This document shows, piece by piece, positions 79-63,606 of a DNA stretch of 64,000 bases. The stretch covers positions 48,918,001-48,982,000 of the forward strand of contig OX597823.1 of assembly GCA_951406725.2 (NCBI GenBank), given 5' to 3'. The translations under genes were made by a program, and so were the position numbers. The stretch comes from Octopus vulgaris. Lineage: Eukaryota. Each line of letters starts with the position of its first letter. Position 1 is the first letter of the stretch. The notes under the pieces were generated by a model. It was not told the DNA's origin. It was given only the letters and a program-made list of their open reading frames with translations, and searched no databases.

Positions 79-288
79 AAGTTAATCCAAACATGAAAAC
101 ACAAAGAGAAAAGACAACAATGCGAGGATGTGGAACAAGTATAGTATTATTGGATGCTCAGGAAAGAAGGAAAGAAGGAGTGTTTACCGTTTCGAGCAGA
201 GCTCTTCGTCAGAAACATAGGAAAAGGAAAGATCCAAAGAAGGGAAGACGGAGGAAAAATATCACCAACAGTACACACGTGGTCACAG
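79..288 (-). mobile_element. Short HHR-bearing retroelement remnant (PLE pLTR-like), family H1
   Basis: Homologous to 50234-50438 in opposite orientation; abuts (TA)n at 63-78; contains HHR motif at 181-217. Confidence 0.7.
181..217 (-). ncRNA. Minimal type I hammerhead ribozyme motif
   Basis: Minus strand: TGTTT CTGACGA A GAGC-TCT-GCTC GAAA CGGT AAACA; stem I TGTTT/AAACA; the other copy has GAAATGTT, so consensus is probably GAAACGTT. Confidence 0.65.
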
Positions 289-419
289 AAAAATATTGAC
301 TTCAAATTTTATATGTATGTATATGTGTAATTTAATGCAATTGAATTTTCCACTCCCACAAAATTGCTGACCTTGTGCCAAAATTTGAAGCCAATATTTT
401 TCTATCCTTTACAATCATG

Positions 420-1350
420 GTCATTAAAAATAATTCATTTTACCAGATTGGTATGTTGTAAGTTCCCTGATTTTCAGCACATGTTCCTAAATCAGTCTTT
501 TTATCTCATGTCCTGATCAGTGTTTTGATACCAAATATATATTCCAGATTCAAATAACATATACAGTTACATATCCAATAAATTCTATTTGATTCATATT
601 TCTTGAAATGTAGATAATATTCTGTTTATATTGATCAGGAAAGACCACCATTCAACACCCTACTTCTAACACCATGATGTCAACTTTGTGTATGAAACAA
701 ATTCTTTCTTTTAATATTTATATTATTATGAATTTTAGTTCCAACAGAACCTACTCAACATTCCATTGAATTATCACAGAATATCTGTTAACTCATTGCC
801 ATTAAAGAATTAATCCAAAAGTCTTATTGCCTGACCAATATAATTTTTTAGTTCCAGTAACCATTATTCATGTTGCTATTTTCTTCTCAATCTTCCACTA
901 TTCAAGAATAATACCACATCTCAAATGGTCTGAATTTGTCTGCTCCTTATTTGTCTTGCTAGTTTGTGTTTCACCAACTTATGTGGCAGGGCATCCTGTC
1001 TGTTTCACCAACTTATGTGGCAGGGCATCCTGTCTGGTTATTGATACTTTTTAAAATGCCTATCACAACATCATCATATGGATTTTTCCCAATAATTATT
1101 TTAATGAAAATAAAAATCCTTGTGCCTTTTGGGTTGCTTTCCTCTTTGTTCAATTATTATTTCAAATTGTTAAGTCTCTTACCAAGGTTTGTCTAAAAAA
1201 TATCTAACTTGCTTTTCATTTCTGAATGATTATGTCGTATATATTCATTAGTTTGCATTTGGTTTCTTCTAATATCGGCAGCTTTAGTTAGGATTGTACT
1301 CATGATCACTCTCACTGCATCACTAGTCAAAACAAAATAAAACCTGTACA
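420..1350 (-). mobile_element. Possible highly decayed LINE fragment (endonuclease region)
   Basis: Only faint APE-like peptide traces; no ORF. Confidence 0.2.
967..1034. repeat. Perfect 34-bp tandem duplication
   Basis: TGTTTCACCAACTTATGTGGCAGGGCATCCTGTC twice (967-1000, 1001-1034). Confidence 0.95.
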
Positions 1351-1983
1351 CATTGAAAGGCAAGTATTTTCTTACAATAAATTTGTTTATACTAAAGCAA
1401 GACTTGCTATGATAAAATTTAATTTGTAATTTAGTTGCATTTTATTAGAATCATAAAAAATTTAATTTATAAGTATTGCATAATACTGTTTAAAACTTGA
1501 GATAAGAAAAGTCATAAAATAATTTTTATCCAGCTGTTTCAAGTTTCCTACCCATTAATTAACTGTAAAACAGACATGTAAATATAAACAAAAGAGAATA
1601 TAAAAATTTTCTTTCTATATAGCAAACTCTTCATTTGGATATTTTATCATGAAGTGATGGACTAAAAGCTTTATGTATCCACCACTGAAGAATTAAATTT
1701 CAATATCTGTCTAAATGAACTCCTGGATTTAGCCTCAAGATTTTAAAATAATCACGTTTTTTTCAATGTTTTCAGAATGTTCCTCTTATCCATTCAGTAT
1801 GTCTAAGAAACAATAGTGTTGACTGTTTTTTAGATTATTTGCTATTCTTTGATGTGTTGTTTACGTTTTGTTGGATAAGAATCTCCAATTATTTTCTGGC
1901 AATATTCTTGGGCTAGGTAGGGATTGAGCCTAGAAACTATATTTTATCAACATGATCTAATGTTTTAACCAAAAGCTCAGAAT

Positions 1984-2209
1984 TTAATCCTTTAACATTT
2001 AAACCAGCCATATCCTTTCCCCTATATATTTTATCACTTTTAAGTTTAAACCAGCCAGATCCAACCTCTTACACTTATCCTACAATACCATTCTAAAAAC
2101 AAACAATTTTACAGTCAAAATATTGAAGTTACAGGATAATGCATGATTAATTCAAAATAATATGGATAAACATTAAATTTGACTGAATAATCTGAATGCC
2201 AAAGGGTTA
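1984..2209 (+). mobile_element. ~225-bp piggyBac-like MITE (family E)
   Basis: Ends TTAA-TCCTTTAACATT...AATGCCAAAGGG-TTAA; homologous copies at 8727, 11302, 37091. Confidence 0.7.
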
Positions 2210-60564: not shown

Positions 60565-60880
60565 CCATCATCATGACCATCCTTTAATGCTTGTTTTCCA
60601 TGCTGGGATAGGCTAGATGGTTTGACCAGAGTCAGCAAGCAGGAGAGCTTCACCAGGTTCCAGTCTGATTTGGCCCGGTTTCATAGATGGATGCCTTTCC
60701 TAATGCCAGTCAATCCTCTTCATCAGGAGAAGTGGCATTAACACTTCTGTTGTGGCAGACGAGTCTTTTTGAGGACAAAATACCTCAGTCCTTTGTCAGC
60801 TCCTCTGTAAGATTCAGTGTTCTGAGATCATCCCTCACTACTTTGTCTCATGTCTACTTGGGTCTCCCTCATACAAAAGT
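60565..60880 (-). mobile_element. RTE 3' coding remnant followed by family C tail
   Basis: GRPK..DKVVRDDLRTLNLTEELTKD (60780-60870) adjacent to family C (60565-60708). Confidence 0.65.
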
Positions 60881-60912
60881 TATCATCCATCCATCCACAC
60901 ACACACACACTT

Positions 60913-61037
60913 GAAGGTACATGGCCTAGTGGTTTGGCTGTTGCACTCATGATTGCTAGATAGTGGGTTTGATTCCCTGATTGGGTGGTACTTTGTGTTC
61001 TTGAGCAAAACATCAATTCACGTTGTTTCAGTCCCAC
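60913..61037 (+). mobile_element. SINE family D head
   Basis: ATGGCCTAGTGGTT..GGGTTTGATTCCC..GTGTTCTTGAGCAAAAC. Confidence 0.65.
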
Positions 61038-61920
61038 TTTTGGTTAGGGGGAAAATGTTGACCTATAGTGATACCCCTATACCCACAGTGCATACATACA
61101 CAGGTTGATTTGTTAGTAGACTGTTATGTAGGCAAATATATATAAATATATATATATATGTATGTATATATATAAGTAGGTAAAATGGATATGTAGGTAA
61201 ACAGATAGTAGATGGACAGACAAGTACTCTCTCACACACACACACACACGCAAAACACAAACATGCACACACAAACACATGAATATGCAAAATACATACA
61301 TATAAACATACATACATGCATACATATATATATACATACATACACACACATATATACATACATACATACATGCATACATACATATGTGTATACACATGAA
61401 TGCTGATGCACACAAACAAACAAACAAACAAACAAAAATAATGCAGCTCCAGTAACGGACAGAGTCAACAACAATTGAAGAAGTTGTAAGAAGCAACGAA
61501 AATTTTAGAAAAAGTCAATAAGTAAATGAGTGGAAATCGAACTGGTGTGTGTGTTAATTAATAAGGTATTAAAACAGAATGACTCTCCCCAGACACAACA
61601 AAATATGCTTCAGCACACTAATTCACATAAAGTATCTTGCAAACCAAATACAAAAACAATGTATCATCATCATCGTGCTGTATGAACATTTAATGTGGTT
61701 TTAGAGTTAGGTTTTGGCTGCTATTTTCAGCATGGTGGTATCTTGTAGATACCCAAAATTATAATTTTAATAATAATTATTACCTTTGAAGGTTTTTATT
61801 TCCATGCTGGCCACTTGATAAGATCATTATATAATTTAAATTAATGATCTTATCCTTATATATTTATATATATATATATATATATATATATATATATATA
61901 TATATATATATATATATATA

Positions 61921-63606
61921 TAGTAATGGTATGACAACAAAAGAATGAATGAAACCTCAATATATAAATCGAGGAATTTATCTGTAATATAATAAGTGAC
62001 AATTATTTGGTTGTCATAATAAAACTCTGAGGCAGTGGATTTAGCGAGGAAATAACCTATACACCTGCCACCAGTCCAATAATAAAGAAAAGGAAACATA
62101 GGGATAGGAAAACTATCTGGTTCACACACCCTTACTCCCCCGAAGTGACCTTTAATATGGGTAAATATTTCTTAGCACTTATAGATAAACATTTTCCAAT
62201 CAATCATAGTAACAGAACGTTCTTCGATAAACATAACTTAAAAATCAGTTTTAGCTCAACTACTGATTTTAAAACTATAATCGCACACAACACACAAAAA
62301 CAACAAAATGAAACCAGCTGTTCGCGCAGGGATAAAAATTTGTGCCTGCTAAATGGAGCTTGCATGTCTGAGACCATCATTTATGAAGCCACCGTAGACT
62401 CTACAACCACTAAGGACATAGTTTCATCAAAGAGATATATGGGTCTCACAGAAGGGAATTTTAAAGCCAGGTTCAACAATCACATCTTGAGCTTCAGACA
62501 CTGGGATAAAAGAAAAACAACCAAATTATCCAGTCATATATGGTACTTAAGAGAAAAAGGTGCCAATTACAACATCCATTGGAAGATCTTTGCCAAGTGT
62601 AACTAACGACAGTGGAAAGTGTAGTCTTTGTGAGATCTAAAGGTAGCTCATCTAGAAAAGCAGCTTAGACCCTGCTACATGTCTAAATCCAAGAACTGAA
62701 CATTTTGGTTCATGTCCGCATATGGCTAAATATTTGTTACGTTTTTGGTCCCCCCAAGATCACCGATAGAACCTGTTTTTTATATTGTGTCCACGTATAA
62801 GCATTTTATCTCTCTATATTTTTTATATATATATTTTTTTTACATATTTATATATATATTTTTATATATTTTTATTGCTTTATATATTTTTACATATTTT
62901 TTCTGTATTTTACCTTTCACCCTGCATTTTTCGTGTGCATGTATGTATATAGACATGTATATGAACATATTTGTGCATGTATGGGTATATATACATGTGT
63001 GTGTGGGTATGCATATGCGTACATGTGTATGGTTGCATATATATGTGGGTGTACATGCATGTGTTTCACGTGACTGTGAGTGACCATATGTATATATAGC
63101 ATTTGTGTATTTAGATGTGTATATGAATATAATTATGCACATATGGGTATGTGCGCATGTGTGTGTGCGTCTTTGCAGATATGTATATGTGTACATGTGT
63201 ATGGTTGCATATATATGTGCACATATAGGCATGTGTGTGGGTGTGCATGTATGTGTTTCACATGAGTGTGAGTGGGCATATGCATACAAGCACATGTACA
63301 TGGGTGTGTATGCATGCATGTGTATGTATGTACATGCACACATACGCAAACTCTATGAGCGTTTTTGCTTTTTTACTTTCTCCCCTTCGGTTTTTTTTCC
63401 CTTTATTTAAAAGTCATTCTATTAGCCCTTTTGCTTGTCTTAATAATGGTCATTTACATAGTAATTTCCCTTTGTTCAACGGTCATTTTCATAGCAGTTT
63501 TTGATTGTCTTAATAACTGATGATGCCAGAGCAGATTTCTGCCCTGATATCCAAAACTCGGAGTTTTATTATGGCAACCGAATAATTGTCACATATATTA
63601 TAGATA
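61921..63606 (+). mobile_element. 5'-truncated Penelope-like element (GIY-YIG) with inverted pLTR, related to 33316-34722
   Basis: FNMGKYFLALIDKHFP..IIYEATV..YMGLTEGNFKARFNNH; inverted 61980-62027 / 63556-63604; degenerate HHR TAATAA CTGATGA...CAAAA CTCGGAG TT TTATTA at 63511-63571; TA flanks. Confidence 0.92.
62935..63345. repeat. Degenerate (TG/TA/CA)n expansion inside the PLE 3' region
   Basis: Absent from the 33316 copy. Confidence 0.85.

Follow-up and report, generated by a model that had tools for sequence, protein, structure and literature searches.

The window analysed here, a stretch of 64,000 nucleotides of Octopus vulgaris DNA (contig OX597823.1, positions 48,918,001 to 48,982,000, forward strand), contains 14 sites with a hammerhead-like motif and raises the question of what these motifs belong to, how they came to lie beside (TA)n tracts and whether they cut. 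An initial annotation, made from the letters alone, had described a dense and diverse system of Penelope-like elements (PLEs) and retrozymes targeting TA microsatellites. Support was obtained for an origin from PLEs, for targeting of TA and for a high density and diversity, but not for the retrozyme part: most units resemble 5'-truncated or inverted pLTR ends of autonomous Hydra- or Neptune-type PLEs. With a probability of roughly 0.85, what the motifs represent are hammerhead-shaped sequences of type I within the terminal repeats (pseudo-LTRs, pLTRs) of PLEs sitting in (TA)n; the short units are then likely to be insertion products, 5'-truncated and often inverted. The units are given below, with motif positions as C3.

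79 to 291, minus: family A unit whose hammerhead (C3 212) is minimal and of type I but has a mutated stem III here; the unit ends 3' at (TA)8.
6485 to 7042, plus: family B; inverted partial pLTR (about 6485-6744, minus) and direct pLTR (C3 6798), TA on both sides.
7075 to 7428, plus: family C; old minimal hammerhead (C3 7340) with decayed GAAA; inverted copy at 7243-7144.
7588 to 7767, minus: family D hammerhead (C3 7744) with a stem II insert of about 96 nt.
17332 to 17903, plus: family E; inverted piece (17425-17373, minus), TA run, and pLTR with a hammerhead (C3 17632) and a 13-bp stem II.
18218 to 18351, minus: second copy of family D, decayed (C3 18347; similarity E 2e-08).
32747 to 33192, minus: family F; inverted 3' pLTR piece with tail and direct pLTR, TA on both sides; intact canonical hammerhead (C3 32888); inserted inside a LINE-type RT fragment (31084-32700).
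33317 to 34714, minus: family G; 5'-truncated Hydra-clade PLE with an inverted pLTR piece (34617-34706), an RT-thumb/GIY-YIG remnant in two frames (34682-33670), a pLTR with a U4C hammerhead (C3 33470) and a tail to TA.
36114 to 36187, plus: short pLTR fragment of the G/L group, adjoining TA.
36555 to 36690, plus: family H hammerhead (C3 36560).
40078 to 40464, minus: family M copy; hammerhead-like motif (C3 40274) in which stems I and III are weak.
50223 to 50442, plus: second family A unit, decayed (C3 50308).
50461 to 50777, minus: family J pLTR (C3 50732) with a 12-nt stem III palindrome, TA on both sides.
53899 to 54560, plus: family K; partial head-to-tail array with a unit of about 355 bp (C3 54295); 14-nt palindrome in better copies.
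54572 to 54956, plus: second family M copy (C3 54749).
61923 to 63614, plus: family L; G-like Hydra element with an inverted pLTR tip, an endonuclease remnant, a simple-repeat stretch and a pLTR with a hammerhead (C3 63517).

All 14 positions first reported have a CUGANGA core (CCGAAGA at 33470), either on the spot or no more than about 125 nt away. The copy at 18347 (minus, family D) had been overlooked, as had further partial or inverted copies at 6744-, 7243-, 17425-, 34617+, 36130+, 53899+/53948+ and 62031-. Two other candidate motifs (40048+ and 47827+) were dropped, no further copies being present among the loci examined. A (TA)5+ run occurs within 300 nt of 10 of the 14 cores, the exceptions being 36560, 40274, 54295 and 63517. 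The motifs at 33470 and 63517 do not belong to non-coding units, as had been proposed, but terminate Hydra-type elements with ORF remnants. At window position 33469 no variant of 10% or more was listed in four runs (contigs of guessed type), which does not by itself prove identity. A general repeat search of the window was dominated by microsatellites.

Motif frequency exceeded the shuffled background at every level: against 60 block shuffles, CTGANGA occurs 47 times in the window (shuffle mean 27.4, maximum 39) and the core with GAAAC 13 times (mean 2.8, maximum 7), while a strict descriptor, comprising the hammerhead core with stems I-III, is passed by two of the 14 window copies and matched nothing in 40 shuffles. 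In 800 kb of spaced genome samples the strict descriptor found 25 matches as opposed to 0-2 in shuffles, from which some 87,000 strict matches genome-wide are estimated; the hammerhead density of the window is average for its genome. An origin of the motifs by chance, in DNA rich in AT and in repeats, is extremely improbable and is refuted for 11 of the 12 families, with family M as a possible exception. It is true that chance alone should give about 27 CTGANGA in the window, that the strict descriptor rejects 12 of the 14 window copies, and that an Rfam scan of the window had no hammerhead family among the 150 of 255 matches listed (nearly all of them microRNA models on simple repeats). Exact motif counts, however, run to thousands against 0 in reversed controls, and the stems are completed in the best copies of each family.

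All 14 sites belong to multi-copy families, 12 in number (A-H, J-M) where about 10 had been counted, and at least 32 hammerhead clusters were recorded across the loci examined. The best copies of 11 families show the type I layout with a palindromic stem III, core, stems I-III and NUH; in family M, stems I and III are weak in all 14 best copies shown. The earlier statement that stems I-III are paired at most sites thus applies to the best copies of these 11 families but not to the window itself, where the 12 failing copies carry substitutions, many at CpG, and complete stems are seen only in copies elsewhere. Nor are the sites without common sequence outside the core, as had been assumed: 212 and 50308 are both family A, 40274 and 54749 both family M, and 33470 and 63517 belong to the sister families G and L. 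Minimal hammerheads had been proposed throughout, but a minimal (ACGU) stem III is confined to families A and C; the non-minimal families have palindromes of 8-14 nt, with a central unpaired base in G and L and a wobble in M, and most of them have long stem II inserts.

The search for ORF-bearing parents, suggested at the outset, succeeded for G, L, F and B, in which Hydra-type ORFs lie upstream of the pLTRs, but not for A, C, D, E, H, J, K and M, for which none was found among the matches listed (20-61 copies per family), so that the PLE origin of these eight rests on anatomy. The parent of family G (locus L061) is an intact, TA-bounded copy of 2.65 kb with a single ORF of 708 aa from the first Met. 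It has the RT with C-terminal GIY-YIG and the length below 3 kb of the Hydra clade, and its translation contains the RWK and DKT motifs, a CxCX5C linker, no CCHH, and CxxC/CxH around the catalytic E and N; comparison with Hydra reference proteins from the paper supplement was made by eye. Pfam matched GIY-YIG weakly on the window fragment (E 0.019) and not on the full ORF. Stems and position of the motif in the family G pLTR fit a canonical hammerhead, but its core is U4C. Family F has a Hydra-type RT/EN parent (L030/L066 and L316), with the endonuclease upstream of the pLTR in L066 and L316 and the CxCX5C linker not recognisable in L066; its motif is present as 1,844 exact 23-mers. A recurrent 5' boundary in family F was considered as a splice junction with a short first exon and rejected, the putative exon belonging to another repeat. 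For family B a Hydra-type endonuclease remnant lies upstream of the pLTR in L115, common to L111; an assignment to Neptune was rejected, the Neptune fragment that neighbours a B unit in L104 being separate from that unit. The endonuclease of family L (window 62031-62780) is broken and 73.5% identical to that of G over 189 aa. A protein search gave 1,022 matches, none with a name among the 120 listed.

Family A is linked to PLEs only through its sister A-prime, found outside the window, which caps intact Neptune-type elements: in L372 a Neptune-type ORF of 1,069 aa, which may belong to Neptune or to Nematis, stands between two A-prime repeats with A6U. The 5' end of family A is sharp: among the first 100 of 1,264 matches, 7 extend into common upstream sequence, and the majority of the others abut TA-type repeats. 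Family A probably represents a non-autonomous unit, about 250 bp long, that owes its mobility to a Neptune-type partner. The stems of A, A-prime and C are 96.6% paired, with double changes in 3 of 8 pairs, a result matched in 3 of 500 shuffles under a control that ignores relatedness of the sequences.

The ends of the units bear on how they were inserted. In spaced samples, 31 of 46 family copies lay within 150 nt of (TA)6+, the background being 17.7% (p 1.5e-13). The 3' ends cluster, at 69-81 nt from TA in 27 of 30 family A loci, at 140-150 nt in 16 of 20 J loci and within 85 nt in 29 of 30 G loci, and the 5' ends are variable; 3' ends are tight in A, E and J and looser in the old families C, D, H, K and M. 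Inverted partners occur in 2-10 per 20-30 loci in families A, C, D, E, H, J, K and M. The motif is no more than about 250 nt away from the 3' end of the element, and short units would for this reason retain it. Integrated copies retain 70-230 nt downstream of the predicted cut, and the 3' ribozyme was accordingly uncut in those templates, a point against the preferred reading.

Alternatively, the short units would be independent non-autonomous retrozymes, as first suggested, spread by circular RNA from two tandem ribozymes. This is unlikely. It is favoured by the sharp 5' end of family A (first 100 of 1,264 matches), by the head-to-tail copies of K, with a tandem partner in 5 of 20 loci, and by short F units in tandem in L066; only A, and perhaps K, look like non-autonomous units. 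However, tandem partners were absent from all loci of A (0/30), B (0/25), E (0/20) and D (0/20), F, G, B and A-prime run on into PLE ORFs, the 5' ends of G range from 9 to 2,500 nt upstream of the core, and non-LTR retrozymes are described as tandem repeats (PMC7229834).

On the preferred reading, that of truncated PLE ends, known PLE biology suggests that a GIY-YIG endonuclease would nick the TA tract, that the RT would start at the 3' end of the RNA and copy it by target-primed reverse transcription, usually halting early, and that the ribozymes would cut tandem transcripts slowly, mostly as dimers via the palindromic stem III. Several successful lineages would move despite a weakened core, which is U4C in G and A and A6U in A-prime, with the fold remaining under selection, and such cores would most likely be slow cleavers, dimer- or protein-assisted.

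These fixed core variants were missed in the first account of the motifs, and the two changes, fixed in whole young families, are what is new here. U4C is present in 3,455 of 3,557 family G motifs, in the commonest exact form of family A (4,640 vs 973) and in a third cluster. A6U (CUGU-N-GA) characterises the A-prime pLTR, with 17,610 exact matches as opposed to 723 with another base at position 6. The variant-core families are among the most numerous and youngest here.

Whether such cores are active is weighed differently by two readings. That CUGU-N-GA and CCGA-N-GA are working cores in the most successful PLEs, with activity that is tuned down or is rescued through dimers or protein, cutting at the predicted site in vivo, and that some 100,000 intact-looking motifs in more than 30 families form one of the densest loads reported, is put forward tentatively. 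Core changes in the CUGA turn lead to low activity (PMC9901934), U4C and A6C have low activity (PMC3088659), and eight of nine predicted retrozyme dimers were without cleavage (10.64898/2026.07.22.740005). The rival, that U4C and A6U ribozymes are catalytically dead, their fold kept for protein binding or priming or by hitchhiking, and that self-cleavage is dispensable for PLE spread, is a serious contender whose chances fall somewhat short of even. It is in keeping with these published mutational data, with the proliferation of Naiad PLEs that have no canonical hammerheads (PMC8557442), with the abundance and youth of the variant families, and with fold predictions for A and A-prime variant monomers, in which the core is mispaired with stem III. 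Against it, the four A-prime subgroups vary in ways compatible with a catalytic hammerhead, which accepts any base at position 7 and U or A at position 17. Of 39 motif columns 3 differ between subgroups (positions 7 and 17 and an outer stem I base) as opposed to 32 of 81 flank columns (Fisher p 2e-4, the flank count being inflated by low complexity); changes are nearly confined to the free positions 7 and 17, and G5, G8, A9 and GAAA are fixed.

Truncation points also speak against dead ribozymes. In three lists of the first 100 matches each, thirteen clear 5' truncation points all fell 0-8 nt downstream of the predicted cut and two ambiguous ones upstream; points just past the cut occur in G and A-prime too, among the matches listed. 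They give a weak hint of self-cleavage, and the pile-up could alternatively come from RT stalling at stems.

The function of hammerheads in endonuclease-bearing PLEs is described as unclear, and they may merely parasitise PLEs (PMC8557442). Here, young families with intact ORFs and canonical (F), U4C (G) and A6U (A-prime) cores occur side by side, which makes the need for catalysis open to experiment. Should the variant cores prove active, the core consensus would have to be broadened, since descriptors built on CUGANGA would be passing over tens of thousands of ribozymes in a single genome; should they prove inactive, a conserved fold without catalysis would be enough for PLEs to spread. Among the unclassified SINEs of octopus, 893 families are recently active (PMC13282606), and part of these SINEs may be PLE ends.

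Lunse and colleagues are said to have found in 2017 many small PLE-linked hammerhead variants with dimer cleavage, possibly with such core variants among them. In the literature searched, a U4C core was found only in the passages of PMC3088659 and an A6U core in none, the supplement of PMC4209133 being covered in part; PMC11014351 contains no string U4C, A6U or A6C. A viroid carries U4C, with lower activity yet still infectious, and a phage carries A6C, with kobs <0.1 per min (Perreault et al. 2011, PMC3088659). The variants in the passages of that paper are isolated, whereas here U4C is the majority form in two unrelated families and turns up again in another cluster, and a large family whose ORFs are intact has A6U fixed.

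For hammerheads in octopus, only Craig et al. proved relevant in the literature searched: Hydra-clade PLEs with hammerhead and (TA)n target, including one from Octopus bimaculoides, are already published (Craig et al. 2021, PMC8557442). Like family G, Hydra-1_Obim combines a C-terminal GIY-YIG without CCHH, RWK, DKT, the CxCX5C linker and a length below 3 kb, and elements of its type share with ours the hammerhead near the 3' end, the (TA)n target, partial tandems and inverted 5'-truncated copies (PMC8557442). It is nevertheless a different family with a different pLTR, with YRDD in its RT where G has YKDD, and all 26 Hydra rows of File S2 have CTGA where the core of G is CCGAAGA (PMC8557442). 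As a further difference, several distinct Hydra-type families coexist here, some with stem II inserts of 50-100 nt. Against the Neptune clade (Neptune1_Ap rows, supplement of PMC8557442), the Neptune-type A-prime stands apart by its CUGU-N-GA core.

The minimal hammerheads of metazoan PLEs resemble those here in the type I layout, the extra base after A9, the palindromic stem III, the mostly single dispersed copies in several families, the dimer model and the low in vitro activity (Cervera and De la Pena 2014, PMC4209133). The core variant given there is U3-A8, with neither U4C nor A6U in the supplement passages searched, and 2,000-9,000 motifs per genome compare with about 87,000 strict matches here under a different descriptor (PMC4209133). 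Non-LTR retrozymes share the short non-coding units, the type I hammerheads, the derivation from PLE pLTRs and the dispersed monomers (PMC7229834; 10.64898/2026.07.22.740005); they are, however, defined as tandem repeats making circular RNA (PMC7229834), whereas the octopus units are mostly single or inverted and continue into PLE bodies.

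Hammerhead-type cores were found near all 14 positions proposed in the initial annotation, and in the window (contig C10, 48918001-48982000; 34% GC, 44 TA runs of at least 12 nt) they exceed the background of 60 block shuffles, with CTGANGA counted 47 times against 27.4 expected and the core plus GAAAC 13 times against 2.8. A strict descriptor of the type I fold, which demands the core C[T/C]GANGA, NUH, a stem I of 3 bp or more, a stem II of 4 bp or more and a stem III complementary to itself, accepted two copies, 32888 and 33470, both on the minus strand, and none in 40 shuffles. 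Since the remaining 12 of the 14 copies are decayed, each unit was used to search the assembly (2.8 Gb, 227 contigs); a DNA query drew between 160 and 3,422 first-look candidates, and every site proved to be multi-copy. The feature is real: in the best natural copies of families A to H and J to L all three stems are complete, and in family M stem II is good and stems I and III are weak. About ten families without common sequence outside the core had been proposed; the multitude of families stood, with 12 in total, but not their complete separateness, as A and M each occur twice in the window and G and L are sisters. No hammerhead family was among the 150 of 255 matches listed in an Rfam scan of the window. 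At 40048-40125, plus strand, a further motif resembles a hammerhead in its core and in stems I and II, and it had no second copy in the examined loci.

The suspected adjacency to (TA)n was likewise recovered, with (TA)6 or longer within 150 nt of 31/46 family copies versus 17.7% of random positions (spaced sample; p 1.5e-13). In young families the 3' ends are fixed and adjoin TA (A, 27/30 within 69-81 nt; G, 29/30 within 85 nt of TA; F, 30/30 within 201 nt, divided into a tailed and a tailless class), and they are looser in old families. The 5' ends vary, their upstream distance from the core ranging between 9 and 2,500 nt in G; inverted partners are frequent (B, 15/25 loci; K, 10/20) and tandem partners rare, except in K (5/20) and J (3/20). 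This is the insertion anatomy given for Penelope-like elements (PLEs) in the relevant sections of PMC8557442. F, G and E each have two alternative 3' ends, one of them with a tail of ~70-155 nt, which exceeds the 30-40 bp described there. Some cores lie head to tail, spaced by ~2,580 bp in G and ~3,624 bp in F:

Contig C1 of the assembly (G000), 57208916-57222516 and 119514422-119525317: head-to-tail arrays of apparently full-length G and F elements, from exact-motif positions

Other repeats share the window with these families:

31084-32700 and 34905-35980, minus strand: two LINE-type reverse transcriptase (RT) fragments (Pfam RVT_1), each ending at a TA tract beside PLE pieces
12175-12383, 14184-14459, 20467-20875, 26928-27874, 36686-36806, 39393-39720 and 56901-57302: abundant dispersed SINE-like repeats of 150-280 bp, often ending at CA/TA repeats

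The ORF fragments at 25897-26208, 45862-46431, 53308-53703 and 3338-4117 resemble Tc1/mariner transposase remnants; the two tested had no Pfam match.

ORF-bearing parents, to be sought for each family, were found for four window families (G, L, F and B), whereas for A, C, D, E, H, J, K and M no RT/endonuclease (EN) parent was among the matches listed (20-61 copies per family). Window positions 33317-34714 hold a truncated coding element of family G, with the best 150 of 25,778 candidates for its endonuclease region at 97-100% identity. An intact 708-aa ORF lies inside a 2.65-kb TA-bounded G copy (locus L061), and its translation contains RWK, DKT, CxCX5C and CxxC/CxH and lacks CCHH. These features match the Hydra clade, which is so defined in the pertinent part of PMC8557442 and is characterised there by canonical hammerheads and insertion into (TA)n. 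Compared by eye, the protein is similar to Hydra-1_Obim of Octopus bimaculoides, listed in the supplement of that paper. Its RT motif is YKDD (L061:2144-4294, minus strand; the same in 5/5 long copies translated), in contrast to YRDD in Hydra-1_Obim and the F parent. The family L endonuclease remnant at 62031-62780 is a broken sister of G (73.5% identity over 189 aa), and F (L030/L066 and L316) and B (L115) run on into Hydra-type RT/EN ORFs. In the F parent at L066:3342-5132, minus strand, a long in-frame low-complexity insert of ~200 aa separates the RT thumb from the endonuclease, and a CxCX5C linker cannot be recognised. Direct F pseudo-LTRs (pLTRs) commonly begin 94-96 nt upstream of the core, directly after an AG of the parent (L026, L028, L066); a splice-site origin of this recurrent start was considered and found no support.

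A second PLE protein fragment, used as query, drew 7,901 candidates and led to a complete element of another type:

Contig C11, 69957500-69964500 (locus L372), minus strand: full-length Neptune-type PLE, 1,069-aa ORF between two pLTRs, cores at 6105 and 1612

Both pLTRs carry an A6U core. Their family, A-prime, has no copy within the window and is the sister of family A, with stems II and III identical and G-C in stem I changed to C-G. Among 1,264 matches to family A, the first 100 include 7 that extend into a common upstream stretch, most others abutting TA-type repeats, and this sharp 5' end fits a non-autonomous unit of ~250 bp.

Core changes are family-wide. The G core reads CCGAAGA; when either C or T was allowed at position 4, 3,557 exact 25-mers matched, and T accounts for 102 of them. 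The exact 34-mer of family A has C4 in 4,640 and T4 in 973 cases, some of which may be decay products of C4, because CCGA holds a CpG; a third cluster has CCGATGA in 3/4 copies. In A-prime, position 6 is U in 17,610 exact 25-mers versus another base in 723, a number near that for decay at G8 (637), with A in 19 of the first 100 of the 723; U6 is likewise present in every one of the 38 motifs that the A-prime regular expression picked out from 50 Neptune-type loci. Position 7 varies (T 40, A 24, C 21, G 15 by hand count of the first 100 U6 matches). When 50 of 58 examined copies were grouped by it, the groups differed in 3/39 motif columns, namely position 7 itself, position 17 (U/A) and the outer base of stem I, versus 32/81 in the flanks, which are low-complexity (Fisher p 2e-4). 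The literature searched on hammerhead core variants, exclusive of Lunse et al. 2017, yielded no naturally occurring A6U core. According to the data excerpted from PMC3088659, U4C lowers activity in a viroid that stays infectious and A6C falls under 0.1 per min, and CUGA-turn mutants score low in the pairwise scan of PMC9901934; reduced activity is predicted from these data for the variant cores.

Alongside the anatomy, copy numbers, four sets of parents and variant cores observed here, established PLE biology (parts of PMC8557442 and PMC4209133; review PMC6765202) suggests a cycle in which the endonuclease would nick a microsatellite, target-primed reverse transcription would follow with 5' truncation and inversion, and tandem copies would be transcribed and cleave themselves slowly as dimers. 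Predicted dimer energies were 6-16 kcal/mol below two monomers in 10/10 copies folded, a gain that any palindrome gives. The variant cores may be slow but retained cleavers, at roughly even odds with a dead but conserved fold.

Truncation points around the predicted cut give a weak hint of cleavage. The 17 nt spanning it were read in 100 matches per family, the first of 2,524 for G, 2,592 for F and 6,454 for A-prime. Clear 5' truncation points numbered 13 (4 in G, 3 in F and 6 in A-prime), every one 0-8 nt downstream of the predicted cut, and two ambiguous ones lay upstream (13/15 versus an even split, p about 0.004 by hand calculation). The count excludes internal deletions and diverged rows and takes three rows from a single F locus as one; far-upstream breaks are hard to spot and microhomology moves boundaries. 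RT stalling at stems would look similar, and in the examined loci no pile-up at the cut appeared for G, A and A-prime boundaries, the F cluster there being query-biased.

The very dense and diverse system claimed in the initial annotation is also found genome-wide. Eighty evenly spaced 10-kb stretches contained 25 strict motifs versus 0, 1, 0, 2 and 0 in five shuffles, i.e., 31 per Mb, equal to the window, or ~87,500 in the genome (95% interval 56,600-129,200); a descriptor permitting A6U gave 30 matches, hence ~105,000, the shuffle control covering the strict pattern only. Across all examined loci 138 distinct strict motifs formed 32 clusters. The figures quoted from PMC4209133 (about 2,000-9,000 minimal motifs per genome) and PMC7229834 (about 5,000 hammerheads in mussel, up to 120,000 in axolotl) were obtained with differing descriptors. 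Hammerheads in PLE pLTRs and TA targeting are known already, with an octopus among the recorded hosts. The novelty lies in the scale and in U4C and A6U cores that are family-wide and occur in elements whose ORFs are intact, so that the role of the ribozyme can be tested.
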